From a virus (Duplodnaviria; Caudoviricetes): 64,000 nucleotides of DNA. Positions 8,501 to 53,649 of the stretch are shown here, in pieces (the first letter of the stretch is position 1; every line of letters begins with the position of its first letter). The stretch is taken from the IMG/VR virus record IMGVR_UViG_3300031718_000109, positions 771-64,770 of that record. The stretch is one strand, 5' to 3'. The position numbers were made by a program, and so were the translations under genes. The notes under the pieces were generated by a model. That model searched no databases. It was not told where the DNA came from and worked only from the letters and a program-made list of their open reading frames with translations.

Positions 8501-9064
8501 TTAAACCCATCCGTAAAGACTGAACTCGCCGGTGGCAAAGTTCCCCGTCGCAGGAAACAGTTTGATAGACGAGATAGCCCCCGAAACGGCCAACAACCCC
8601 CCGTACACCCCGACAAACGCAGCCGTCGCCGAACTAGGCCCGTACCCAATACCCACAGCATTCGCGAAGTTGGTGGCATCCGACGCATACGGCAGCACAA
8701 TCTGCCCGCATGACGTATAGAACGCCGTAGCCGACGCCGCCGTCATCGTTCCCACCTGAATCTGCGCCACCCCGCCGCCGGTGTTGAAACCGCTCACCGC
8801 CGCATTAGTCGACGCCTCCATACGCTGGTAGGTGTACGCCGACGCGCCCGTGTTGCCGTTGAGCTGCATCATGAACTGGACCGTGGCGACCGCCGAATCA
8901 CCACGGCCGTTCCACATCACCGACAAGTGGTTGAAGTTCGCTGAAATCGAACTGAATGTGACACTCGCGGTAGTGGTGGTCACCTTCTGAGTTGAGATCG
9001 GCATCGCGGTAGCCTGGAGATACGCCACCTGCGCCAACAGCAGCGCTTCATACGTAGACGCCAT
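8501..9064 (-). CDS. Tail-associated beta-sandwich protein
   Basis: SVTFSSI...AISSIKLF..GEFSLYG, typical of tail-fibre C-terminal domains. Confidence 0.6.
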   Translation of the reverse strand: MASTYEALLLAQVAYLQATAMPISTQKVTTTTASVTFSSISANFNHLSVMWNGRGDSAVATVQFMMQLNGNTGASAYTYQRMEASTNAAVSGFNTGGGVAQIQVGTMTAASATAFYTSCGQIVLPYASDATNFANAVGIGYGPSSATAAFVGVYGGLLAVSGAISSIKLFPATGNFATGEFSLYGWV

Positions 9065-32050: not shown

Positions 32051-32263
32051 CTACAGGTCATAGTCGTCAACCGGCTCAAACTCCGTGTACACCAAAGTCC
32101 GTGCCACCCAGCCCTCATCAGTGGGCAGCACATAGCCGCCGCCGGTGAGCACCGCGCCGTGCCGCAGCTTCACCGTGAGCCCCGCGCTTTCACACGCAGT
32201 TAACGCGGCGGCCACCCGCTCCAGCAGGTGGGCGGTGACCGCCGCGTTAGGCCGCTTAGGCAT
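32051..32263 (-). CDS. Hypothetical protein
   Basis: Overlaps the portal stop codon. Confidence 0.45.
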   Translation of the reverse strand: MPKRPNAAVTAHLLERVAAALTACESAGLTVKLRHGAVLTGGGYVLPTDEGWVARTLVYTEFEPVDDYDL

Positions 32264-35200
32264 CCCGGATGGTGCGCAGCAGGGCGTTCATGCTGCCGTG
32301 CAACTCATCACGCACCGCCGGGTTGTCCCGCAGATCCCCGGGGTTCCACCACGCCAGAGCTTCAACCTGGTCTCCGTCCGGGTCATCAGGGTTCGTCACC
32401 TGGTCGCGCCCGTCATGAATAGGGACATCCGTCTCATGCGCCACCGTCAGCGTGAACACCTGATAAACGCCGTTGGTGGAGGTGAACCCCAGCTTGAGTT
32501 CACCGTCCGGCAGGTGGCAGCCGGTTTCCTCCTGCCACTCACGGCTTGCGGCGTCAGCAGGGTGCTCACCCTCATCCAGGCGCCCGCCCGGCAGCTCCCA
32601 GGAGCCGCCAGCCGGGTCATCCTCCGTAAGAGCGCGCTGCAACATCAGCACGCGGCCGGTGTCCTTGGCGACGACTGCGAGTCCGGCGGCTGCCGGGCCT
32701 ACTGACTTGTTGGCCGGGTCTGCGCCTTGGTGCACCTGGTAGGAGTGGGTTTCATCCCATGGGCCGCCGTTGGAGTCCACGAAGCCGACGTAGGCCATGT
32801 ACGGCACCCCGGCCTGCTTGGCGGCCAGGTACCGGTGATGACCGTCGATGATCTTCACTTCGGTTTCGCCGGGCTCCTGCACACAGATCCCCGGCTTGAC
32901 CGGCTTGCCCCTCTTGAGGAGGTCAGCGAAGTGGGCGACACGGTCCGGCTGGTGTGACGCGGCCCACGTCTTGACGCCGCCCACATCCACCCGGTCCACA
33001 GCAACCTGGACGGGGCCGATCCAGCGGGTGTCATCCACCCACTTCAGAGCCTTAGCCGGGAAGTTATCCAGCATCAGGTTCTTCACATGCACCGCGTCCA
33101 CCGGGTTAGGGTCACCCGGATCAGACGCACCCTTGACCGCGCCGGGCGGTGAGGAACTACCCGGCTGCCCGGTACCCAGGCGCGCCATAGACGGCGCACC
33201 ACCAGCCGGTCCGCCGCCCTGAGCCGCCGGAACACCCCGGCCTGGCGGCATCTCGGCATCATCCTCATCCGGCGGCGCGGTACGCACCCGGCGCCTAGGC
33301 TGCGCGCCGTCCCAACGCGGCGGCTCACCCCCCGCAGTAGACCCCGGCACACCACCCGGAACTTCAACACCGTCCACGTCATGCGCCGGAAGCACCCGGC
33401 CGCCGCCACCGGCAGCAACCTGATACTGCGTCACCTGACCGGACCCGGGCGGATCCACCCACACCTCCTGCCCGTTCAGTTCAACCCGCCGCGTAGCCTT
33501 AGCCACCAGGATCGCCTGCTCAACAGTCAGACCCTTGGTCACGTCCTCATCAATAGACATAACCATCGCGGAATCAATATGACGTGGCCTCCAAGACGCA
33601 ATGTCCCGGCCCTTGCGGTAATGCCGGGCCAGCGCAGCCAGCTCAGAATCCACCGCCCGGGACTTAGCCCACGCCGGGACCAGCTGAGCCACCACGTCTG
33701 CGGACACGTCCACCGGCTCCACGCTGACACCGGGGTACCCGCCGCCCGCACGGATCTCCTGGTTAGCCAGATCAGCCACATCCTGACGGATCTGGTCCCG
33801 GGTCATAGCCCGCATACCCGCATCCGTAGGAATGTCCCCCAGGTAGTCAGCGCGCGCCGCCGCCGCGTCCTGCCGCATAGCAGTGATGTCATCCAGCTGC
33901 TGCCGGTAGTAGCCGGTAGCGTCCGGCAGCTGCGTGTTACTGCCCCACAAAGACGGGGAACCCGGCTCCACATACTCCAGAGAGCAGTGACAGTTGGGGC
34001 CGCCCGCGCACTGGCCGCCGAAGCCTCCGTCACCCGGGTAGCCGGGCAGGGAGTGGAACGTGTACACCTTGCCGTCCCGGTCAATACACGGCTTGCAGTG
34101 CTCCGCGTTCCCCAGATGCCAGATGATGCCGTACTCCGGGTTGGAGGCCTGCACGGTCTGCCCGAACGCCTGGTTGTAGGCGCCCGCAACCGTGTTCTCA
34201 TACGCCGTCAACCTAGAGTTGAGCCAGTCCGTGCCCACCATGTTCAGTGCCGTGTACAGCAGCACGGACAGGAACGCCTGCTGGTTGTTAGCCCTGGTCT
34301 GCGCCGCACCGGACACATCGATCGGGTTGACATCCGGATAGTCATTCGCCGCATCATGTGACGCCGCGTGCATAGCCTTTGCGTACCCGTCCGCCAGCAC
34401 CCCGGTAGCCGCCGTCATAGCCGCCATATGCGTGATGTTCCCGGCCTGGTACTGCTCCACCGTGGAGCGCAGCGTGGAACGCACATGCGCCGCCGCCGCC
34501 AGCACCCGGGTGCTGCGCCGGGCCTGGTGCGCCGCCTGGAACTTACTGATCTGCGGCGCCGCCACCTTCCCGGAAGACGCCGGAGCGGAAGACGCAGACG
34601 GCTTACCCGCCGCGTTGGCTGCTGCTTCAGATGCTGCGTGCCCCGGAGACTGCCCGGCGTTACCGGACGGCTTCCCGGCAGGCTTAGCGCCCGGCTTGGC
34701 GGGCGCGGGCTTAGCACCGGGCTTAGCCGGGGCTGCGCCTGGCGGGGTGGCGGTAGCGGGGGTGTTGGCGTCCGGCTGCTGCCCCGGGGCTGCCACGCCG
34801 GTAGTGAGCATCTGGCCCAGGGGAATGAACCCCTGCATCGTCGCCCACCCCGGGTCAGAAGTTTCCGGCAGGCCCCACGGCTGCTTCCCCAGCGCCTCGC
34901 GGCCTTCATCAATGGAGGCGAGGCCTGCGCCGATTTGGGAGACCAGGAGGGTGGTGAGGGTTTCCTCGTCCTCATCCTCCTCCAGGCCTTCAAACGTGAA
35001 CTGCATGTCTTCCTGGCCGCACACGTCCTGGAGGATCATGTTGAAGATAGAGGCCAGGAACTCCAGGGTAGGCTTCGTCGCTTTCCGCTCGTGAATACCC
35101 TGCGTGGCTTTTGCCATCTGGTTGGACGCGCCGGGGGAGACGGTGGAGGAGACCTTAGGCATGATGCCCAGCTCCATGGGCTGCACACTGAACGCCATGC

Positions 35201-36455
35201 AAACCTGGTTCATGACGATTTCATCGAACTGGTCTGCCAGCTCAGCTGGCTTCTGTGGCATGACCTTTGAGTCCGGAGGCAACACAATGATCTTGTGCTT
35301 CTGTGCTACATCCCCAGCCACCGCGTTCAACGCGGACTGCAACTCCCGGATCTGATTAGGCGTCATCTGGTTAGCCGCACCCGGAGACACAAACATCCCC
35401 GGAATAGTGCCCTCACGGAAGAAATCCAGCTGATAACCCTGCTTCTGCAAACCCGCCATCACCGGCACCAAAGCCTGCTCAATCATCGTGAACCCATACG
35501 GAGTCCACCGGCGCGGCGTAAACGGCCTATAAATCAGCTGATCCCCACGGAACTCCTTACGCTGCGCATCAGACAGACCCGCCTCCAGCAGATCCCGCTC
35601 CGTCCACATCGTCGTCAAATCCGTACGCGGCACCCCATACAGGTACTGCTGGTACGCCGGAGCCGGAGGACGCGGACGCTCACCATGCAACCCCACCAGC
35701 GGCCGGATAGTAGGACCGTTGATCAAAGACAAGGAGTCCAGGTCTGAGCCGAACAGGCCTTTGCCCTTACCGTTGCCCTTGGGGCTGCCGTTGGCGCTGC
35801 CCCACTTAGGGCGCATCAGGATGGACAGGGCGTCAAACACGAACACTTCCTCCAGCAGCACGCTGATGAAGGAACCCCAGTCGTCGTAGTCCGGGTCCGG
35901 GTGCTTGAAGAACTCCACCGCCTCCGCGCGGCGCTCGCCGAAGTCTTCCATGGCGGCGGTGTCTCCGCGCATCTTCTTGGAGGCGTCTTTGGTGGGGGTG
36001 ATGTCCCAGGCCAGGCCACGGATTTCTGCTTTGCGCAGCTCAATGCAGGCGCGGGCTACGGAGTAGAGGTCTGCGAGGGTTTGGATGGTGCTGAATGACG
36101 CTAGCTTCAGGCCTTCTGAGCCGGGGGTGCCGACTGGCAGGTTCCAGCCGATGTCGTACTGGTACAGGCGGGGTTCTGCGCGGGTGGCGTCCGGGGACGG
36201 GGGCTGGTCTACCGGGACCGGCAGGATGGGGCTGAAGGGGCCGAAGGCGCCTGCGGTAAACGTGTTGGTGGGGCGGGGCAGGAAGCCGCCGTAGGCGTTG
36301 GCGTAGCCGGTCATGGAGCCGCCGGACTCCAGTTGCGCCTGGAGGGGGCTGATCATGCCGGAGTAGGCGCCCTGGGGTGCGGGGGTGGGGCGTGCGCCTC
36401 CGGGGTTCTGCTTGGAGAGGGGGGTCAGGGCTCGTGCGACGTTGCGGGCGGACAA
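32256..36455 (-). CDS. Portal protein fused to MuF, ParB-like and Nudix domains
   Basis: Portal motifs (YGF.MIE, FFREGTIP, VCMAFSV.P.ELG); CKPC..GPNCHC (MuF); IIDGHHRYLAA (ParB/Srx); GGRLDEGEHPADAASREWQEETG (Nudix box). Confidence 0.88.
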   Translation of the reverse strand: MSARNVARALTPLSKQNPGGARPTPAPQGAYSGMISPLQAQLESGGSMTGYANAYGGFLPRPTNTFTAGAFGPFSPILPVPVDQPPSPDATRAEPRLYQYDIGWNLPVGTPGSEGLKLASFSTIQTLADLYSVARACIELRKAEIRGLAWDITPTKDASKKMRGDTAAMEDFGERRAEAVEFFKHPDPDYDDWGSFISVLLEEVFVFDALSILMRPKWGSANGSPKGNGKGKGLFGSDLDSLSLINGPTIRPLVGLHGERPRPPAPAYQQYLYGVPRTDLTTMWTERDLLEAGLSDAQRKEFRGDQLIYRPFTPRRWTPYGFTMIEQALVPVMAGLQKQGYQLDFFREGTIPGMFVSPGAANQMTPNQIRELQSALNAVAGDVAQKHKIIVLPPDSKVMPQKPAELADQFDEIVMNQVCMAFSVQPMELGIMPKVSSTVSPGASNQMAKATQGIHERKATKPTLEFLASIFNMILQDVCGQEDMQFTFEGLEEDEDEETLTTLLVSQIGAGLASIDEGREALGKQPWGLPETSDPGWATMQGFIPLGQMLTTGVAAPGQQPDANTPATATPPGAAPAKPGAKPAPAKPGAKPAGKPSGNAGQSPGHAASEAAANAAGKPSASSAPASSGKVAAPQISKFQAAHQARRSTRVLAAAAHVRSTLRSTVEQYQAGNITHMAAMTAATGVLADGYAKAMHAASHDAANDYPDVNPIDVSGAAQTRANNQQAFLSVLLYTALNMVGTDWLNSRLTAYENTVAGAYNQAFGQTVQASNPEYGIIWHLGNAEHCKPCIDRDGKVYTFHSLPGYPGDGGFGGQCAGGPNCHCSLEYVEPGSPSLWGSNTQLPDATGYYRQQLDDITAMRQDAAAARADYLGDIPTDAGMRAMTRDQIRQDVADLANQEIRAGGGYPGVSVEPVDVSADVVAQLVPAWAKSRAVDSELAALARHYRKGRDIASWRPRHIDSAMVMSIDEDVTKGLTVEQAILVAKATRRVELNGQEVWVDPPGSGQVTQYQVAAGGGGRVLPAHDVDGVEVPGGVPGSTAGGEPPRWDGAQPRRRVRTAPPDEDDAEMPPGRGVPAAQGGGPAGGAPSMARLGTGQPGSSSPPGAVKGASDPGDPNPVDAVHVKNLMLDNFPAKALKWVDDTRWIGPVQVAVDRVDVGGVKTWAASHQPDRVAHFADLLKRGKPVKPGICVQEPGETEVKIIDGHHRYLAAKQAGVPYMAYVGFVDSNGGPWDETHSYQVHQGADPANKSVGPAAAGLAVVAKDTGRVLMLQRALTEDDPAGGSWELPGGRLDEGEHPADAASREWQEETGCHLPDGELKLGFTSTNGVYQVFTLTVAHETDVPIHDGRDQVTNPDDPDGDQVEALAWWNPGDLRDNPAVRDELHGSMNALLRTIRDA

Positions 36456-46635: not shown

Positions 46636-46968
46636 CTACTCGTCCCGGCCGTACGCCGCGTCACGAGCACGCCGCAGCAACCGGATCAGCTTGTTCAACT
46701 CATCCCGGTCCAGCCCAGCGGTGTAGTACTCACCCAACGGCTCCGGCGGCCACGCCTGCGCAGCCGCGTACTCCTCCAGGCTCACCGGCGGGTAGCAGGC
46801 AATCGACAGCGACACGCTGCCCGTGAGATCCAGCTCAGTTGAGGTAAGCGTCGACCAGTGAAGGGTCAGACGCGGGCTGGTCGTCATCACCTTCCCGGTG
46901 ACTTCCCCAACCTCGTTCCACGCATTGCTCTCTACAGAACGAGAATGTGCAATCACTTCTTTCGGCAT
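46636..46968 (-). CDS. Hypothetical protein
   Basis: GGAGG RBS; MPKEVI...LIRLLRRARDAAYG. Confidence 0.6.
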   Translation of the reverse strand: MPKEVIAHSRSVESNAWNEVGEVTGKVMTTSPRLTLHWSTLTSTELDLTGSVSLSIACYPPVSLEEYAAAQAWPPEPLGEYYTAGLDRDELNKLIRLLRRARDAAYGRDE

Positions 46969-47037
46969 CGCGCCGTCCTCCATCGCGGAGTAGAAGGCCG
47001 CATCGCGCAGCCCGACTACCCCGGGATGCTACCAGGG

Positions 47038-47108
47038 AAGCGGAGACGGGGTTCGAACCCGTGTGCACAGCTTTGCAGGCTGCTGCCTCACCACTCGGCC
47101 ACTCCGCC
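47038..47108 (-). tRNA. tRNA-Cys(GCA)
   Basis: Cloverleaf; loop CT GCA AA; U73. Confidence 0.92.
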
Positions 47109-47111
47109 GCG

Positions 47112-47193
47112 TACGCCCGGTGGGAGTCGAACCCACACGCCACTAGGGCAACGGCTTTTGAAGCCGTCGCGTCTGCCATTCCGCCACAAGCGC
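47112..47193 (-). tRNA. tRNA-Leu(CAA)
   Basis: Cloverleaf with long variable arm; loop TT CAA AA. Confidence 0.92.
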
Positions 47194-47194
47194 G

Positions 47195-47266
47195 TGGACG
47201 TTGCAGGGATCGAACCTGCGACCTGCGCCGTGTGAAAGCGCTGCTCTCCCGCTGAGCTAAACGTCC
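47195..47266 (-). tRNA. tRNA-Val(CAC)
   Basis: Cloverleaf; loop TT CAC AC. Confidence 0.92.
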
Positions 47267-47269
47267 AAG

Positions 47270-47362
47270 AGCGTGGGGAAGGACTCGAACCTTCCCCACC
47301 CAGGGCTTAGCCGAACCTACCCAAGTAGCGACCCTGGGGGCACTCGGCAGGCTATGACACAC
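47270..47362 (-). ncRNA. tRNA-like structured RNA
   Basis: GGGAAGG-TTCGAGT-CCTTCCC T-arm and CCCAGGG/CCCTGGG stem; no canonical D or anticodon arm. Confidence 0.45.
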
Positions 47363-47400
47363 CTGGATGACCGGTCGATCCTTGCAGACCGGCACACGCG

Positions 47401-47472
47401 TCGGGACGACAGGATTCGAACCTGCGTGGTCCTGCTCCCAAAGCAGGTGGGCAACCTCTACCCCACATCCCG
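47401..47472 (-). tRNA. tRNA-Pro(TGG)
   Basis: Cloverleaf; loop TT TGG GA; atypical D arm. Confidence 0.88.
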
Positions 47473-47594
47473 AAACTGCTGGGCCCGCTACTACGGGTAC
47501 AGGGATCTTGCCCGGGTACTTGCCCACCGCGCAGGCGTGTTCACCGAGTTGGCCTCCCTGCCCGCCGGGTAAGGGTTCCGGCGGCCACCAGCCG

Positions 47595-47667
47595 TGGAGA
47601 CTACAGGCTTCGAACCTGCGACCTTCTGGGTGCAAACCAGATGCTCTACCAACTGAGCTAAGTCCCC
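47595..47667 (-). tRNA. tRNA-Ala(TGC)
   Basis: Cloverleaf; G3:U70; loop TT TGC AC. Confidence 0.92.
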
Positions 47668-47769
47668 TACACACCGGTCACGGCGGACACCGGCAAGACC
47701 CCCGGGGAAAATCGACGTTCCCCGGGAACAGGCCCCTGCGGTTTCGAGGACCGCAGCAACCCACCACCG

Positions 47770-47843
47770 TCGGGATAGCAGGACTCGAACCTGCGACCTC
47801 CTGGCCCCCAGCCAGGCGCGCTACCAGACTGCGCCATATCCCG
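47770..47843 (-). tRNA. tRNA-Pro(GGG)
   Basis: Cloverleaf; loop CT GGG GG. Confidence 0.92.
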
Positions 47844-47933
47844 GTGCTGGCTGCTTTGAGGGGGGTACCAATTCCTCTCCGCTTTCTCCTGTACGCGCGT
47901 ACCCGCCAGGGATTGGCCCACCAGCGGACCGCG

Positions 47934-48007
47934 TGGCCAGGGACGGGATCGAACCGCCGACCTACCGCTTTTCAGGCGGTCGCTCGTACCAACTGAGCTA
48001 CCTGGCC
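47934..48007 (-). tRNA. tRNA-Phe(GAA)
   Basis: Cloverleaf; loop CT GAA AA. Confidence 0.93.
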
Positions 48008-48011
48008 AAGC

Positions 48012-48086
48012 GTCACCGTCTCTGTTTCATGACGAACATTCCTGCGCCGCGCACCCGGATCTCCCGGGCAACCATACGACGGTGAC
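48012..48086 (-). ncRNA. Spacer RNA family, copy 1
   Basis: 9-bp terminal stem; CCCGG-GAGAT-CCGGG; CATGAAACAG. Confidence 0.5.
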
Positions 48087-48089
48087 ACG

Positions 48090-48163
48090 CTCCCCCACCT
48101 GGACTCGAACCAGGGACACCTCGGTTAACGGCCGAGTGCTCGTGCCAACTGAGCTACAGGGGA
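48090..48163 (-). tRNA. tRNA-Asn(GTT)
   Basis: Cloverleaf; loop CC GTT AA (C33). Confidence 0.9.
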
Positions 48164-48237
48164 TCAAGCGGGCCGTTTTTGGTTAGGGTCATGCCCAGGA
48201 CCCGTACCAGCAGCATCCAGGAGGCTGCCGCTGGCCG

Positions 48238-48311
48238 TGCGCGCCGGAGGAATTGAACCTCCGACCTGCTGCGTATCAGGCAGCTGCTCTCACCAACTGA
48301 GCTAGACGCGC
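48238..48311 (-). tRNA. tRNA-Ile(GAT)
   Basis: Cloverleaf; loop CT GAT AC. Confidence 0.92.
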
Positions 48312-48426
48312 TGGAGCCGTAGACAGGCCAACCTGCATTTGTCGTCCCAGGCAGCTTGTTTCCACCTGAGAGGCAACCCGCCGTCGCGGACCTTCGCGGT
48401 TTTCAGCCGCACTCTCGACCTACAGC
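48312..48426 (-). ncRNA. CCA-ending tRNA-like RNA
   Basis: GCTGTAG/CTACGGC acceptor-like stem plus TCCA; GCAGG/CCTGT stem; GCGG-CTGAAAA-CCGC arm. Confidence 0.55.
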
Positions 48427-48427
48427 G

Positions 48428-48509
48428 TGGCAGGAGCAGGATTCGAACCTGCGTGGCTTTCGCTCTCGGTTTACAGCCGAGCCCTTTCGACCAACTCGGG
48501 CACCCTGCC
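48428..48509 (-). tRNA. tRNA-Tyr(GTA)
   Basis: Cloverleaf with variable arm; loop CT GTA AA. Confidence 0.92.
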
Positions 48510-48513
48510 ATGC

Positions 48514-48593
48514 GGTAGCTCACCGCTGTTTCATGCACGATCGAATGGGGCGCGGTCCGGAGATCTCCTCCGGCACCATGGCGTTGAGCTACC
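48514..48593 (-). ncRNA. Spacer RNA family, copy 2
   Basis: 9-bp terminal stem; CCGGAG-GAGAT-CTCCGG; CATGAAACAG. Confidence 0.5.
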
Positions 48594-48596
48594 AAT

Positions 48597-48679
48597 GAAG
48601 TGACACAGTGATCGAGCAAGGACCACAGTCGACGCAGCCCCGACCGGAGATCTCCTCCGGCTCCACTCCGTACCACTTC
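48597..48679 (-). ncRNA. Spacer RNA family, copy 3
   Basis: GAAGTG/CACTTC stem; CCGGAG-GAGAT-CTCCGG; GATCACTGTG. Confidence 0.5.
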
Positions 48680-48680
48680 G

Positions 48681-48754
48681 CGGTCCTGACGGGACTTGAA
48701 CCCGCGACCTCCACCTTGACAGGGTGGCGAGCACTCCAACTGCTCTACAAGACC
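48681..48754 (-). tRNA. tRNA-Asp(GTC)
   Basis: Cloverleaf; loop CT GTC AA; G73. Confidence 0.93.
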
Positions 48755-48873
48755 ATGCGTAACCGTTGACACCCCGGAACGTCGTAGAGCTCAGCAGTGC
48801 ACTACCAAGCCACCTTCGGACCAGAGTCACAGCCTTCGCAGACGCACGGGAACCACACGCCTTCGGCTGATCG

Positions 48874-48946
48874 AGCCGTTGACGGGAGTCGAACCCGCTA
48901 CCTCCACGTTGGAAGCGTGGCGCCCTGCCAGTAGGGCCTCAACGGC
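48874..48946 (-). tRNA. tRNA-Gly(TCC)
   Basis: Cloverleaf; loop CT TCC AA; U73; A8. Confidence 0.88.
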
Positions 48947-49028
48947 GTGAACCAGCACAGTGATCAACTCGGCTCCGTTACAAGCCTGTCCGGAGACGTC
49001 CCCCGGCTCTACGCCCGTACTGTTTCGC
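48947..49028 (-). ncRNA. Spacer RNA family, copy 4
   Basis: GTACGG..CCGGGG-GACGT-CTCCGG..TTGATCACTGTG. Confidence 0.45.
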
Positions 49029-49173
49029 TAGCACTAGGGGGACCGAACCCCTAAGCCCGTCGGCTGTCCGCCAGGACGTACCACCCACCGTTCCGCTACG
49101 TCCGCGCACCCTATGCGCAAGAGGTTGGGCGCGCCCAATAAAAACCTCGTAGCTGGGAAGTGACTCCCACTCG

Positions 49174-49246
49174 TGGCGGAGGTAGGACTCGAACCTACGG
49201 CCTCTGGGTTATGAGCCCAGCACGCTACCAACTGCGCTACTCCGCT
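49174..49246 (-). tRNA. Initiator tRNA-fMet(CAT)
   Basis: A1:C72 mismatch; GGG/CCC anticodon stem; loop CT CAT AA. Confidence 0.9.
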
Positions 49247-49331
49247 ACGCCGGTGTCCTGCCGCCTGCCTGGGGCAAGGGCACCGGTCCCGGCCTGGAGG
49301 GGATCTCCGTTCCCTCCCTGCCGTTGCCTCT

Positions 49332-49361
49332 ATATTACGCTACTCACGGGGGTGGGGGCAA
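49332..49361 (-). promoter_or_regulatory. Promoter of the tRNA/ncRNA operon
   Basis: TTGCCC-18-TAATAT; overlaps an inverted TACGCTACTC motif. Confidence 0.6.
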
Positions 49362-49365
49362 ACCC

Positions 49366-49602
49366 CTAACGCGCCCGCTCCACCATCCGCACCGAAGTCA
49401 CGTACTCCGTCTTCACCGCCAACACCGTCCGGTGCCGCCAATCCTTGAAGTACACAAACCTAGCGTCATCCCCCTGCGCGTCATTCCCGGCCTTCCAATA
49501 CAAGGCCTCCACCTTCTCCGCGCGCGGCGTGGCATGCAGCCCCCCCGGCTCCGTGTACGCGATCTCAAAGGTGTGCATGTCCGTGGCGAGCGCCTCAACC
49601 AT
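49366..49602 (-). CDS. Hypothetical protein
   Basis: GAGGA RBS. Confidence 0.55.
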   Translation of the reverse strand: MVEALATDMHTFEIAYTEPGGLHATPRAEKVEALYWKAGNDAQGDDARFVYFKDWRHRTVLAVKTEYVTSVRMVERAR

Positions 49603-50681: not shown

Positions 50682-53159
50682 CTACTGGTCTGGGGTGGCC
50701 CCGCACTTAGGGCACGCCTTGTGATACTCCGGCAGGAACGCATGCCCGCACCCAGGGCACGTATACGCCCCGTACGCCGCCAGCCAGGAACCCTCCGTCA
50801 GGCCGCGCAGCTCCGTCACCGCCCACACCAGCGCGTCCATCCGGTCCGGGGAAACGCCGATGCCGGGGACGAAGCTGCACAGCTGGTCCTCCAGCTCCGG
50901 CAAAGTACCCACGTGATGCATCCGGCCCATCTCATACAGGGAAGACACCGGCTCAGCGCGGATCACCTTGCCCCTAGAGGCGTGCACCGTTTTGTACGGG
51001 ATCTGCGGATCCAACGTCCGCAACGTGTTACCAATGTAGTCGCCGCCGTTATTCACCTCAGCGACAATGCAGTCCGCCTTATGGTTCCGGTACACCCAGA
51101 TAGCCCGGCGCATCACCTCATTAGGCGTACCCCGGAAGCTGTAGTCACCCAGCACATACCCGTGATCCCCACAGTGGCCCACCACGACGATGCCGGACTC
51201 ATCAGACTCATCACCAGAGGTGACCGCAGGGTCAATAGCCACCACAACCCTGGTGAGCTCCGGAACCTGCCCCTGACCCACCCGGCACTGGTCAATCACA
51301 CCCCGGCTCCACAGCGCCCCCTCAATGTCCTCCAGCAGCTCACCCTCAAGCTCCTGACGGCCCAGACGGGAACCCTCATACCGGTGCTTGAGCTCAGCCA
51401 GCGCCGTAGCACTCAGGTTCAGTGCGTTCTCCCACGTGGAGCCACGCGTGACATGCACAGAGCCGTCCCGGCGGCCCACCAGGTCCCGGATCAGCTTCGT
51501 AGGCCTAGGCGTCGTAGTCACCACAATGCGGGGTTTCTCCCCCTTACGCAGCGCAGGGACAAGACCCTCATGCCACGTAGCCTCATACCGCCAGGAGCCG
51601 AGCTCGTCGCAGTTGTGTACTAGTGTCCCATTTGCAACGAATTCGTGGGCGCCCTCAACCTGAAGGTCAAAGACATCAGCCAGCCCAGCGGGCTCGACCC
51701 TCACGACGTCCGTACCGGGTACGGCACAGATCCCCGCAGAATCGCTGACGGCCGTCCTTAGGCTCAAACGGGGTTCCGCAGTACTCACACCCAGGGATGC
51801 CGAGCCGAGCACGGTTACGGGCCCGTTTGGCGGCGTCTCCGGCCCGCTGGCGGCACTGGCCGCCGCAGTAGACGGTACGGCGGTCCGGGGGGATGAATCC
51901 GGTGCCGCACCACTCACACTCCCGCTCAGGCAGCGGGGCGTCTCCGCGTTCCCGGTGATCTGCCCGGAACGCGGCAGCCTTGCACTGCGGGGAGCAGTAC
52001 ATGGCGCGCTGTCCCTTGGACATGAACACGGTGGCGCACACAGTGCAGGTGCGTTCCCGCTCAGGCCGGTCAGCCCAGGAGTCCCGGGCCTTAGCGCTGC
52101 GCTGTTCCTGGTACGCAGGGGCGGCGACGCCACGGGGGTGTTCAAGGTTGTGGAGCCGGATGTGGTCAGCGCGGGTGAGCAGCTGCAAGTTGCCCGGATC
52201 ATTGTTGGTGACGTCGTGATCGACGTGGTGGACAACATGGCCGTCGGGCAGGGGCTGCCCGTGTACGCGTTCCCAGACTGCAACGTGCAGCAGGCAGCCG
52301 GTGCGGTCTGCGTAGTGGCCGGTGCCCCGGCCGCGCTGGTACCAGCGCACACCTTCCCACTCGATCCAACGCGGTGGCCCGAAGACGAAGTCCATGCGCT
52401 TAGTGTATCTCCATAGCGCAGCGCCCGTGCTTCCACCCACCCGTGTTGTTCCGTCCAGATGCGATGGTTCCCCGTCACCCGCACACTCGTCCCCGCAGAA
52501 GTCACCACCCGCAACACCTCAACATCACGTTGAGTCATCTGCGTGGCAGTCACCCGGCGCCAGCCCCTACGCGTCCACACCCAGTCACCGGGACGCACAT
52601 CCTCAATAGGCACGTCCCCCGCGTCCGTGAGCACTAGCTCCCCGCGCGCCACGCACCAGGCTCCCCAAAGGTTCGCCCCGCGCGCACGTTCCGGCTGGTC
52701 AGCGGAGTAACCGTAGATCTTAGAGCCGTTGGCGAGAATGATCTCCAGCTCGTTACGCCGGTAATTGCCCAGCTCACCCTCACCGATAGCAGCGAGGATC
52801 CCCGTGGAACCCTCGATACACACCTTGCGGGTATCCCGGAACGTAGGCGCAAACACAGCCCACTCCGAGCCCGGCAAACGCAACGCCTGACGCACCAACC
52901 ACGTACTGCCGACCAGGGACTTACCGAACCCGCGCCCAGACATCAGCAGCCAGATCACAAACCCGTCATCCACACCCGCACAGCCACACGCGAAACCCTG
53001 CGCATCCGGCAGATGATGCCCCGGATGATCCGGCGGCAACTGCTTAGGGCGGAACGTGTCCGGGAACTTAGCCGCCCTAAGCGCCCCAAGCTGCCGTTGC
53101 AGACTTACATACTCATCCCGCTGCGCCTGCAACGTAGCCAGCTGCTCCCGCAGCATCAT
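50682..53159 (-). CDS. terL: Terminase large subunit containing an intein
   Basis: Walker A SGRGFGKS; Walker B WGAW|CDE split by the intein; TTTPRP; VVAIDPA; PDRMDA. Confidence 0.93.
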   Translation of the reverse strand: MMLREQLATLQAQRDEYVSLQRQLGALRAAKFPDTFRPKQLPPDHPGHHLPDAQGFACGCAGVDDGFVIWLLMSGRGFGKSLVGSTWLVRQALRLPGSEWAVFAPTFRDTRKVCIEGSTGILAAIGEGELGNYRRNELEIILANGSKIYGYSADQPERARGANLWGAWCVARGELVLTDAGDVPIEDVRPGDWVWTRRGWRRVTATQMTQRDVEVLRVVTSAGTSVRVTGNHRIWTEQHGWVEARALRYGDTLSAWTSSSGHRVGSSGKVCAGTSAAGAPATTQTAPAACCTLQSGNAYTGSPCPTAMLSTTSITTSPTMIRATCSCSPALTTSGSTTLNTPVASPPLRTRNSAALRPGTPGLTGLSGNAPALCAPPCSCPRDSAPCTAPRSARLPRSGQITGNAETPRCLSGSVSGAAPDSSPRTAVPSTAAASAASGPETPPNGPVTVLGSASLGVSTAEPRLSLRTAVSDSAGICAVPGTDVVRVEPAGLADVFDLQVEGAHEFVANGTLVHNCDELGSWRYEATWHEGLVPALRKGEKPRIVVTTTPRPTKLIRDLVGRRDGSVHVTRGSTWENALNLSATALAELKHRYEGSRLGRQELEGELLEDIEGALWSRGVIDQCRVGQGQVPELTRVVVAIDPAVTSGDESDESGIVVVGHCGDHGYVLGDYSFRGTPNEVMRRAIWVYRNHKADCIVAEVNNGGDYIGNTLRTLDPQIPYKTVHASRGKVIRAEPVSSLYEMGRMHHVGTLPELEDQLCSFVPGIGVSPDRMDALVWAVTELRGLTEGSWLAAYGAYTCPGCGHAFLPEYHKACPKCGATPDQ
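51612..52655 (-). mobile_element. Intein (348 aa) in TerL Walker B
   Basis: Begins CVARGELV; block B TGNHRIW; ends VFDLQVEGAHEFVANGTLVHN; +1 residue is Cys. Confidence 0.92.
51676..52395 (-). CDS. HNH endonuclease nested out of frame inside the intein
   Basis: LHVAVW..VHHVDHDVTNNDPGNLQLL...H...H plus three CxxC..F...YC/FCxxxC Zn fingers; own ATG and upstream GGAG. Confidence 0.85.
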   Translation of the reverse strand: MDFVFGPPRWIEWEGVRWYQRGRGTGHYADRTGCLLHVAVWERVHGQPLPDGHVVHHVDHDVTNNDPGNLQLLTRADHIRLHNLEHPRGVAAPAYQEQRSAKARDSWADRPERERTCTVCATVFMSKGQRAMYCSPQCKAAAFRADHRERGDAPLPERECEWCGTGFIPPDRRTVYCGGQCRQRAGDAAKRARNRARLGIPGCEYCGTPFEPKDGRQRFCGDLCRTRYGRREGRARWAG

Positions 53160-53649
53160 GAGCCTGCTCGGCGGCGATAGCGGCGGTGAGTTCTGCGATG
53201 GCGGCGTCAAACGCTCCAACCGTCACCACCTCCGCTTTGATGTCCACCTTCATGGCCGCGTCCAGCCCCAGGAGTTTCGCTTTCCGTTCCTGGATGGCCA
53301 GCAGGTCCCGGCGGGCCCGGGAGTTAGGCGCCGTGTCATACACAGGGGTGCCGTCCGGGTTGATAGCGATCTTCCCGGACTGAGTGACGTGCGGGTGCTT
53401 GGTCAGCACGTCCCGCCACGCCAGAGCACGCAGAGCTTCCAGCTCCTCAATCTCCCCGGCGATAACCTCATCCATCGTCGCCCGCAGTCGTGCGGCTGCC
53501 TGCTGGTAGGCGAGGGACGCGTCTTTGCCTGCGACGGCTTCTGAGATGCCGAGTTCTCTGGCGATGTCTGCGTAGCGGGCGCCTCTGGCTTTCATGGCGA
53601 CGACGCGGGCGCGTCGGTCTGCGACTTCTGCTTGTTTGGCTATGTTCAT
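53113..53649 (-). CDS. terS: Terminase small subunit (HTH type)
   Basis: GARYADIARELGIS; RKAKLLGLDA; directly upstream of TerL. Confidence 0.75.
   Translation of the reverse strand: MNIAKQAEVADRRARVVAMKARGARYADIARELGISEAVAGKDASLAYQQAAARLRATMDEVIAGEIEELEALRALAWRDVLTKHPHVTQSGKIAINPDGTPVYDTAPNSRARRDLLAIQERKAKLLGLDAAMKVDIKAEVVTVGAFDAAIAELTAAIAAEQAHDAAGAAGYVAGAAG

Follow-up and report, generated by a model that had tools for sequence, protein, structure and literature searches.

Three conserved RNA families among the spacers of a phage tRNA array, and a probable mixed origin for the remainder

The window analysed here is a stretch of 64,000 nucleotides (nt) from a virus of the Caudoviricetes (Duplodnaviria), positions 771 to 64,770 of IMG/VR record IMGVR_UViG_3300031718_000109, and our subject is the array of transfer RNA (tRNA) genes at 47036-49246, together with the spacers between those genes. 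ARAGORN and Rfam agree on 13 tRNA genes, the number counted in an earlier sequence-only reading of this DNA, all on the minus strand, with tRNA-Met first and tRNA-Cys last:

47036-47108, minus strand: tRNA-Cys(gca), packed with the next two genes (gaps of 2 and 0 nt; ARAGORN, and Rfam at 53-66 bits for the three)
47111-47193, minus strand: tRNA-Leu(caa)
47194-47266, minus strand: tRNA-Val(cac)
47400-47472, minus strand: tRNA-Pro(tgg) (ARAGORN and Rfam, as for all below)
47594-47667, minus strand: tRNA-Ala(tgc)
47769-47843, minus strand: tRNA-Pro(ggg)
47933-48007, minus strand: tRNA-Phe(gaa)
48089-48163, minus strand: tRNA-Asn(gtt)
48237-48311, minus strand: tRNA-Ile(gat)
48427-48509, minus strand: tRNA-Tyr(gta)
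48680-48754, minus strand: tRNA-Asp(gtc)
48873-48946, minus strand: tRNA-Gly(tcc)
49173-49246, minus strand: tRNA-Met(cat), first gene of the array, with an 80% identical copy in relative L008

The ten long spacers, which we name by their upstream and downstream tRNAs, measure 73, 81, 89, 101, 115, 118, 121, 133, 170 and 226 nt, and the two other junctions measure 0 and 2 nt, so that the 70-140 nt given in the sequence-only reading does not hold. CCA is not encoded 3' of any array tRNA, and the open reading frames (ORFs) listed for the region cross tRNA genes and are not credible as genes. At gathering score Rfam finds tRNA and no other family in the whole window, and a permissive search (E<=10) of 46900-49500 returns the tRNAs, weak matches lying over them and one chance-level match on the plus strand. 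Intrinsic terminators are not in excess between 46500 and 49800 (2 found, 1.7 expected from shuffles); one of the two sites is on the opposite strand and the other is the top of hairpin 2 in the Pro(ggg)>Ala spacer. A promoter scan of the same interval found no sigma-70-like site, and TTGCCC-18-TAATAT upstream of tRNA-Met, read by eye, scores 8/12, below the bar of that scan.

We favour, with a probability of about 0.55, the reading that this is one co-oriented phage tRNA operon whose long spacers are of mixed origin, comprising conserved RNA cassettes, tRNA relics and filler. Five spacer elements would be autonomous cassettes of folded RNA from three conserved families, here called types 1, 2 and 3; three spacers would hold decayed tRNA genes, and the remainder would be filler with local hairpins. 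In the list of the five elements that follows, R1 is the covariance model of type 1, P1 is the closing helix, and fold z is the folding-energy score against shuffled sequence:

47473-47593, minus strand: type 3 RNA, a four-way junction of about 115 nt (pairwise alignment, 8 viral loci, Streptomyces phages, alignment A3)
48009-48089, minus strand: type 1 RNA, copy A, with an 11-bp (base-pair) closing helix; R1 56.7 bits (training sequence), fold z=-2.5
48513-48594, minus strand: type 1 RNA, copy B2, canonical, reading P1/CAUG/GUG-CCGGAG-GAGAU-CUCCGG-AC/P3/CAUG-AAACA/P1'; R1 79.9 bits (training sequence)
48595-48681, minus strand: type 2 RNA, copy B1, with a 12-bp closing helix, the same capped hairpin and the junction GGAGUGGAG ... 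GAUCAC; R1 32.7 bits, E=1e-6, not a training sequence
48947-49028, minus strand: type 2 RNA, copy D, reading GCGUAGAG-CCGGGG-GACGU-CUCCGG-AC ... UUGAUCAC; R1 only 10 bits (E=2)

The first clue to type 1 was a hairpin, CCGGAGGAGAUCUCCGG, shared by two minus-strand spacers with flanks alike when read by eye. An exact 17-mer scan of IMG/VR returned 39 viral loci, and three contigs that otherwise share no DNA similarity with the window (E<=1e-5) have the 17-mer between tRNA genes, with the same flanks and a closing helix that is different but complementary. A gapped pattern matched 16 viral loci. A looser one, with 23 specified bases and 31 gap lengths, matched 23 loci in a species-representative genome set of 596 Gb, where by our own arithmetic about 0.5 chance matches are expected; the carriers include a Thaumarchaeota metagenome-assembled genome with five copies, Nitrosopumilales, Thermotoga, Syntrophus, Chthonomonas, Verrucomicrobia, Bryobacterales, Kofleriaceae, Acidimicrobiales, Limnocylindria, Streptosporangiaceae and other Actinomycetota. 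In metagenomes the pattern matched at least 120 stretches, of which 80 were analysed, and the type 1 totals rest on these together with the viral and genome loci. Across the viral, genomic and metagenomic collections there are at least 142 distinct canonical copies. The model R1 gives 69 matches in the viral and genome loci and, among the matches listed, 88 in the metagenome loci; run over the whole window with filters off, it matches inside the tRNA array only.

The type 1 fold is a three-way junction of about 80 nt (65-100 nt among members) with essentially no unpaired junction bases. A variable closing helix P1 of 4-16 bp, which carries a 5-nt bulge AAACA on its 3' strand, leads to an almost invariant 4-bp junction helix, CAUG:CAUG; the P2 arm then consists of a G-C pair, a U-A pair, a bulged G, the helix CCNNNN/NNNNGG and the cap GAGAN, and is followed by 'AC' and a variable hairpin, P3. 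About 20 junction, bulge and loop positions are invariant, and the helices vary freely.

Support for this structure comes from covariation. In 53 distinct rows from the viral and genome sets (the type 1 alignments, A2 and A4, being fitted to R1) 90.0% of cells are paired, against 61.6% when columns are shuffled and 30-41% when the structure is slid; 24 of 26 pairs change on both sides, and none of 500 shuffles reaches any of five measures. The raw sequences show the pairing changes directly, without a model, and P2 is paired in 833 of 852 cells of the 142 pattern-defined canonical copies among the matches listed. Even the 'invariant' junction pairs covary in subfamilies, GUG...AC becoming CUG...AG and CAUG:CAUG becoming AAuAG:CAUU. 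On the tRNA strand 82 of the 1346 paired cells in the 53-row table are G-U by our own count, which favours an RNA of this strand over a repeat that acts as duplex DNA (MITE, REP or attC-like). A search by mutual information for a tertiary partner of the fifth loop base, made against eight other single positions, gave none, and no transposase or integrase stands consistently near type 1 copies in the neighbourhoods examined. Blastn of copy B2 against annotated phages yields only 23-nt chance matches, in tail genes, and R1 has no match on the type 3 loci or on two whole Streptomyces phage records. The covariation supports type 1 statistically as a conserved structured RNA.

Type 2 is a sister of type 1, alike in closing helix, capped hairpin and third arm, with junction letters GCGUAGAG ... 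UGAUCAC. Copy D matches locus L004 at 94% over 32 nt and L025 over 29 nt, and a family scan adds relatives at L087 and L088/L089. The support for this type is a comparison by eye of six sequences: no two share a closing helix, all six of these helices (8-14 bp) are fully complementary, and P2 occurs in three versions. Searches by nhmmer with the spacers as queries recovered the type 1/2 hairpin only.

Type 3 would be a cloverleaf-like four-way junction with two invariant loops. In the window its closing helix is GCUGG/CCAGC; one hairpin carries the 9-nt loop AACCCUUAC and the long arm has the internal-loop letters GAGGCCAAC and AAGAUCCC, all of them invariant, and a further hairpin is capped by the loop GUAGUA(G). 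It was found by eye, from the likeness of the Ala>Pro(tgg) spacer to a stretch of L004 (Smith-Waterman z=8-10 against shuffles over a 116-nt alignment), a likeness missed by blastn-short with the spacers. A pattern scan gives 8 viral loci on contigs of 24-156 kb, 6 of which have the end of a tRNA (Ile, Tyr or Pro) directly 5' of the element; in L004 and L025 the element starts about 120 nt after tRNA-Lys, and at the L082 locus no tRNA was found near it. Blastn finds type 3 in 7 Streptomyces phage records, 5 of which cover at least 93% of the query at 83-84% identity, and in 5 Gordonia records as partial matches that overlap the query's tRNA end. In phage Frankenweenie the unannotated element begins at the last bases of an annotated tRNA-Arg, and in Satis it lies within an unannotated gap. 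A 'hypothetical protein' is drawn over it in Kradal (MK620894.1, about 126856-126967) and EhyElimayoE (MW291021.1, about 126859-126970), probably a spurious ORF call.

RNAalifold gives type 3 as a four-way junction whose closing helix reads GCCGG/CCGGC, GCUGG/CCAGC or GCAGG/CCUGC in different members. Counted on alignment A3 (11 sequences), 95.5% of cells are paired, against 86.2% in shuffles and 39-46% when slid, and changes on both sides occur in 15 of 35 pairs, where shuffles give 5.6 and none of 500 is as high. L004 and L025 also carry members of all three families. No Rfam 15 family matches types 1, 2 or 3 in the window spacers, in 11 loci at gathering score or in L043 6200-6400 at E<=10.

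The five elements fit closely against the tRNAs. In copy A, P1 starts at the first base after tRNA-Asn, and the element ends 2 nt before tRNA-Phe; in copy B1, P1 starts at the first base after tRNA-Asp, and 2-3 nt separate it from copy B2, which ends 4 nt before tRNA-Tyr. Copy D ends 3 nt before tRNA-Gly, and type 3 leaves gaps of 1-2 nt behind tRNA-Ala and of 5 nt ahead of tRNA-Pro. Of 130 distinct type 1 copies outside the window among the matches listed, 10 abut a tRNA on the same strand, about 0-17 nt, and mostly 0-5 nt, from the model match. Transfer RNAs are matured by RNase P at their 5' ends and by RNase Z or exonucleases at 3' ends that lack CCA. From the discriminator base of an upstream tRNA to the closing helix the distance is 0-2 nt, and from the end of the helix to +1 of the downstream tRNA it is 2-5 nt; an RNase Z-type 3' cut with an RNase P 5' cut, both by the host, would free each cassette as an RNA of about 80-120 nt with a terminal helix. 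Because the closing helices are flush with the tRNA ends and CCA is not encoded, we infer that the cassettes would be released by ordinary tRNA processing and may accumulate.

Away from tRNAs, type 1 has several settings. In Thaumarchaeota (L054, L056, L060, L066, L069, L071, L134, L135, L145) it lies about 87-147 nt after genes for PQQ-dehydrogenase-like beta-propeller proteins, with a conserved TATA-like TTATTTAGA box some 30 nt before P1, as for a separate small-RNA gene. Six loci of an archaeal-looking soil group (L091, L111, L121, L130, L132, L169) have a AATATAAA box, type 1 and then a hairpin or T-rich stretch, with an SBP_bac_11 solute-binding protein gene 87-147 nt downstream in the 3 loci examined, an arrangement that looks like a leader. 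This shared order of promoter-like box, element and gene, and a junction core conserved across domains, would suit a riboswitch-like aptamer for a ubiquitous small molecule or ion. Most copies, however, have no consistent downstream gene, those between tRNAs or after genes leave no room for an expression platform, three tandem copies at L093 have unrelated P1 helices, and no Rfam riboswitch matches; we regard the aptamer as very improbable.

Phage copies of type 1 have varied neighbours: in L076 a Mu-like major capsid gene ends 2 nt upstream of the element, and a U-tract is present; in L043 two copies sit in the gap between the protease and major-head genes; in L016 a DNA polymerase gene follows; and further copies come after genes for DNA ligase, RecA/KaiC-like and DUF5131 proteins. 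Together with the position downstream of the archaeal PQQ-dehydrogenase-like genes, with TTTTT after type 2 in L088 and L089 and with closing helices of up to 16 bp, the capsid, protease and polymerase cases lend something to the idea that the cassettes are cis-acting RNA-end or processing modules which set the ends and half-lives of neighbouring tRNAs and messenger RNA and do not act in trans. A run of four or more T within 10 nt after P1 follows just 5 of the 142 canonical copies among the matches listed, so that type 1 is not an intrinsic terminator as a rule; moreover, some 20 positions kept invariant from archaea to bacteria exceed the needs of simple end-protecting hairpins, and no nuclease is common to all the hosts. 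A purely cis-acting role thus seems to us possible but on balance doubtful. At L016 (6306-9037, plus strand) 62 nt separate the type 1 variant from a downstream ORF whose match to a DNA polymerase profile of 1445 positions covers 673-1226 only. The 263-amino-acid (aa) ORF upstream matches nothing, and it may be that the element splits the polymerase gene.

Two or three type 1 copies occur at 15 of 138 loci among the matches listed, and at L093 (885-1148, minus strand) three lie head to tail, 3-7 nt apart, with unlike P1 helices, between two ORFs. A type III toxin-antitoxin system was considered for the L093 copies and rejected, since P1 differs between copies and the flanks are ordinary ORFs. 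Multiple and tandem copies also belong to the argument that types 1 and 2 form a small self-cleaving ribozyme class, which would cut the tRNA operon or a phage polycistronic RNA without protein. A three-way junction of such size, with its invariant positions and freely varying helices, self-contained, present in bacteria, archaea and phages, and indifferent to gene context, has the profile of the known small ribozyme classes, and copies flush with tRNAs recall the theta and hammerhead ribozymes, which cut RNA next to phage tRNAs. Theta ribozymes, as presented in the part of the source that deals with them, are the precedent beside phage tRNAs (PMC10879173). On the other side, no Rfam ribozyme family matches at E<=10 in window positions 46900-49500 or L043 6200-6400, no conserved nucleotide outside P1 marks an end-cleavage site, and a closing helix abutting tRNA ends is explained by RNase P and RNase Z alone. 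To our knowledge, conserved motifs that look like this have mostly failed to cleave when assayed elsewhere, and we judge a self-cleaving class of types 1 and 2 to be rather unlikely.

Most type 1 copies are far from tRNAs, and therefore the tRNA setting is one of many and says little about function; as type 1 would work alike outside tRNA arrays, its job is presumably not tRNA-specific. No protein family turns up repeatedly among the neighbours, and so nothing indicates a dedicated protein partner. The invariance of junction, bulge and loop across domains points to a self-contained active fold, in which these parts would form the active or binding site. We would put first, though at somewhat less than even odds, a small stable RNA, or a module of RNA ends, whose role is to bind a universal cellular partner or to shield the ends of RNAs; catalysis, by self-cleavage or otherwise, appears unlikely and a ligand sensor improbable, other options taking the rest. 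A more ambitious conjecture would make types 1 and 2 together a new catalytic or ligand-binding RNA class, built as a three-way junction of about 75 nt with an A-rich bulge and a GAGAN-capped arm and shared by bacteria, archaea and phages, serving as protein-independent punctuation or effector between tRNA genes, with types 1-3 as a co-travelling toolkit of actinobacterial phage tRNA operons; we would bet against it fairly heavily.

The spacer tracts outside the five elements are of a different kind:

47267-47399, minus strand: Pro(tgg)>Val spacer, 133 nt, a tRNA-like relic with the canonical T arm GAAGG-TTCGAGT-CCTTC; T-arm likeness z=4.3, fold z=-3.4
48164-48236, minus strand: Ile>Asn spacer, 73 nt, a relic of a tRNA-Arg(CCG)-like gene; best score against 192 tRNAs z=6.5
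49027-49120, minus strand: tRNA-like relic in the Met>Gly spacer, T arm AGGGG-TTCGGTC-CCCCT; called by ARAGORN only at -ps80, with mispaired stems; T-arm likeness z=4.9
47668-47768, minus strand: Pro(ggg)>Ala spacer, 101 nt, three predicted hairpins; fold z=-1.3, no homologue found
47844-47932, minus strand: Phe>Pro(ggg) spacer, 89 nt; fold z=+1.0, no homologue in any locus compared
48312-48426, minus strand: Tyr>Ile spacer, 115 nt, predicted closing stem; fold z=-1.2, marginal likeness to tRNA-Tyr (z=2.8), no homologue
48755-48872, minus strand: Gly>Asp spacer, 118 nt; fold z=-0.6, no consistent homologue
49121-49172, minus strand: the first-transcribed, tRNA-Met-proximal end of the Met>Gly spacer, 52 nt, two local hairpins; z=-0.2 for the whole spacer, no conservation seen

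The first three of these tracts read as relics of decayed tRNA genes and not as tRNAs. In the Pro(tgg)>Val spacer ARAGORN calls a 94-nt 'tRNA' (47269-47362) at lowered thresholds only, with mispaired stems. The part of tRNA-Arg(ccg) from L005 to which the Ile>Asn spacer aligns runs from the anticodon arm through the variable region to the start of the T stem; the spacer has 2 extra anticodon-loop bases and a degenerate T arm, and its 5' part is gone. Rfam's tRNA family at E<=10 matches no spacer. On the minus strand of L004, between tRNA-Lys and type 3, there is a T-arm-like piece, GGGGTTCGATGCCC, with GCGGTTCAATCCCGTC and GAGTTCGAGCCTCGG farther downstream, which suggests decayed tRNAs in that array too. 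Two observations concern tRNA genes elsewhere. In the 41-tRNA array of L005, a complete 166-kb phage, ARAGORN calls a tRNA with a four-base anticodon (gcaa) at 8802-8877 (minus strand), a possible frameshift-suppressor-like tRNA. At L048 7646-7773 and 8097-8227 (minus strand) Rfam tRNA matches of 128-131 nt span the whole 71-position model with an insertion of about 55 nt where ARAGORN calls none, and these long tRNAs are possibly intron-bearing.

For the Pro(ggg)>Ala spacer there is weak comparative support for the hairpins, from one contig. A soil contig of depth 3 from a near relative differs from it at 15 listed places, which include two compensatory double changes in hairpin 2 (47726/47701 and 47721/47706; C-G to U-A and G-C to C-G) and two U-G to U-A changes, wobble to Watson-Crick, in hairpin 1; the other differences open two loop-proximal A-U pairs of hairpin 2 and fall at seven unpaired positions. 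These differences were mapped by the author onto the predicted fold, and among the contigs of four soil DNA runs this one alone was informative, the others mostly cross-matching unrelated tRNAs. A metagenome scan for close relatives, anchored on the 3' end of tRNA-Pro(ggg) and the 5' end of tRNA-Ala gave 0 loci.

Folding energy divides the spacers differently. On the tRNA strand 4 of the 10 beat 200 dinucleotide shuffles at z<=-2.2, namely Pro(tgg)>Val (-3.4), Asp>Tyr (-2.7), Asn>Phe (-2.5) and Ile>Asn (-2.3), and the remaining six lie between -1.3 and +1.0; the spacer of type 3, whose comparative evidence is second only to that of type 1, scores just -1.25. Because the opposite strand gives comparable z in several spacers, folding energy does not discriminate, and it neither confirms nor refutes the claim of structured spacers. 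Such z-scores alone both over-call and under-call conserved elements of this sort.

In all, the ten spacers comprise 4 with conserved families, 3 with relics (Met>Gly being counted in both groups), 1 weakly supported and 3 unsupported. Measured against this, the sequence-only reading had proposed that nearly every spacer is a discrete structured RNA, which is right for the 4 of 10 that carry conserved families and too broad for three relics, one weakly supported spacer, and three further spacers and the 52-nt end piece that are without support. Its element boundaries at 47478-47590, 48012-48086, 48514-48593, 48597-48679 and 48947-49028 agree with the conserved elements; the stems that it saw closing the spacers near tRNA ends are flush helices in those five elements and are no rule for every spacer. 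The idea of tRNA punctuation framing discrete non-tRNA RNAs likewise fits the five elements, which are flush and conserved in unrelated phages, and does not extend to the other spacers. The expected yield of about ten small noncoding RNAs is not supported, since three spacers are decayed tRNA genes and three more, with the 52-nt end piece, have neither a homologue nor a significant fold. The comparison with shuffled controls that it had called for came out in favour of 4 of the 10 spacers and showed six no better.

The same figures bear on a plainer account, that the spacers are mostly debris, decayed tRNA genes and filler of a fast-turnover array whose structures are leftovers or GC-rich chance hairpins. 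The tRNA remnants in three spacers (T arms in 47267-47399 and 49027-49120, a tRNA-Arg anticodon arm in 48164-48236), the six spacers that fold no better than shuffles, and the three spacers and end piece without homologues all agree with it, as do two relatives of the virus. One, L085/G004, is a complete genome of 119.8 kb with 54% identity in the flanking 716-aa protein; the other, L008, shares 68-80% DNA identity in structural genes and has tRNA-Met only at this place, where its contig ends. What debris leaves unexplained are types 1-3 themselves, which recur in unrelated phages, and in the case of type 1 in cells, with compensatory changes and invariant loops, and which are unlike tRNAs (likeness z -0.7 to 1.1). 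As an account of most of the spacer sequence, debris therefore seems unlikely to us.

Several points do weigh against an operon of mixed cassettes, relics and filler. The array of L085 has ten tRNAs with unrelated spacers, and its type 1 copy lies elsewhere, away from tRNAs; with L008 and its single tRNA-Met, this means that array content is fluid and not a fixed system. For 116 of the 130 type 1 copies among the matches listed there is no tRNA on their strand nearer than 500 nt, and 4 more have one at 31-500 nt; the gene contexts of type 1 are heterogeneous and indicate no partner protein or ligand. The Phe>Pro(ggg), Tyr>Ile and Gly>Asp spacers and the 52-nt end of Met>Gly have neither a significant fold nor a homologue in the loci compared. 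The type 3 structure was derived from A3, the alignment on which its pairs were counted, and the fitting of A2 and A4 favours R1's own structure. Finally, the public sequencing runs that contain the region (46900-49400 queried) are soil DNA metagenomes with no RNA run listed, so that release and accumulation are deduced from the sequence.

The source record has 64,770 bases, most of them in the window, and a CheckV completeness of about 53%; the window is about 64% GC. The proteins encoded in it include a large terminase that contains an intein, a fusion of portal and NUDIX domains, and a tape-measure-like protein. In the terminase subunit (50682-53219, minus strand) Hint and intein-splicing domains occupy residues 189-536, between Terminase_6N and Terminase_6C. 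In a 1399-aa ORF (32256-36455, minus strand) residues 299-523 form a phage portal domain and residues 1257-1377 a C-terminal NUDIX hydrolase domain; provided that the ORF is real, such a fusion is unusual. Megablast of the whole array against annotated phages returned tRNA pieces only; the tRNA-Phe of the window is 95% identical to a Mycobacterium phage tRNA-Phe. Because of this resemblance, and because one spacer family recurs in Streptomyces and Gordonia phages, an actinobacterial host is likely.

Phage tRNA clusters are usually annotated as tRNAs and empty gaps, and here the gaps carry three conserved, uncatalogued RNA families. Type 1, with at least 142 copies in both prokaryotic domains and in viruses, has invariant junction nucleotides; such wide spread with invariant nucleotides has preceded the discovery of new ribozyme and riboswitch classes. 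The presence of type 3 in cultured Streptomyces phages opens its expression, processing and knock-out phenotype to direct testing.

Among known RNAs, type 1 may be likened to the P5abc three-way junction of group I introns, which we take to be an independently folding tertiary module with an A-rich bulge beside its junction and a GNRA-type-capped arm; type 1 differs in having no sequence relation to it and no intron context. The hammerhead, twister, twister-sister, pistol, hatchet and hairpin ribozymes give no match at E<=10 in 46900-49500 or L043 6200-6400, and none at gathering score in 11 loci. The sequence-only reading had also suggested ribozymes like that of hepatitis delta virus (HDV), or theta ribozymes. 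In the part of PMC10879173 concerned with them, theta ribozymes are minimal HDV-like ribozymes that start a few nt from phage tRNA 3' ends, with a proposed role in tRNA maturation. Types 1 and 3 differ in their covariation-supported 5'-3' closing helix, which is absent from the HDV double pseudoknot; the HDV family in Rfam has no match at E<=10 in 46900-49500, and a loose HDV descriptor of our own finds pairings at 4 of the 13 tRNA 3' ends, none of them with the L3 CC and J1/4 GG needed for P1.1. An HDV-like or theta identity was rejected on these three grounds: no Rfam match, no candidate capable of P1.1, and a closing helix in conflict with the topology.

Structured RNAs of phages have been surveyed before. 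In IMG/VR, comparative prediction has given 10,006 candidate structured RNAs (csRNAs) of uncultivated phages, some tRNA-like and some upstream of capsid genes (PMC10690425); the portion of that text available to us names no three-way junction and no ribozyme, and types 1-3 may be among these csRNAs. Mycobacterium-associated tRNA arrays, those of phages included, hold a transfer-messenger RNA and a 'structured RNA' of about 430 nt according to the relevant part of PMC5966550, and it is by length alone that we set this RNA apart from the elements of 80-120 nt described here. A literature search for the motif letters gave nothing relevant, and the literature on tRNA arrays and structured RNA, supplementary lists lying outside the search, does not describe these families.

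RNA C and RNA D of phage T4 (species 1 and 2), both small and stable, sit in a tRNA cluster and are freed by tRNA-type processing. They are the closest precedent, by analogy of arrangement: in both cases small RNAs that are not tRNAs are encoded with phage tRNA genes, here inside the cluster and on the tRNA strand. The likeness is one of description, and there are differences, in that the families described here are GC-rich and belong to actinobacterial-type phages, and type 1 is found widely in bacterial and archaeal genomes too, mostly away from tRNAs. The function of RNA C and RNA D is given as still unknown in the section of PMC9697503 that treats them. Non-tRNA RNAs embedded in phage tRNA clusters are already known as a kind, and what appear to be new are the three RNA families themselves and the breadth of type 1.

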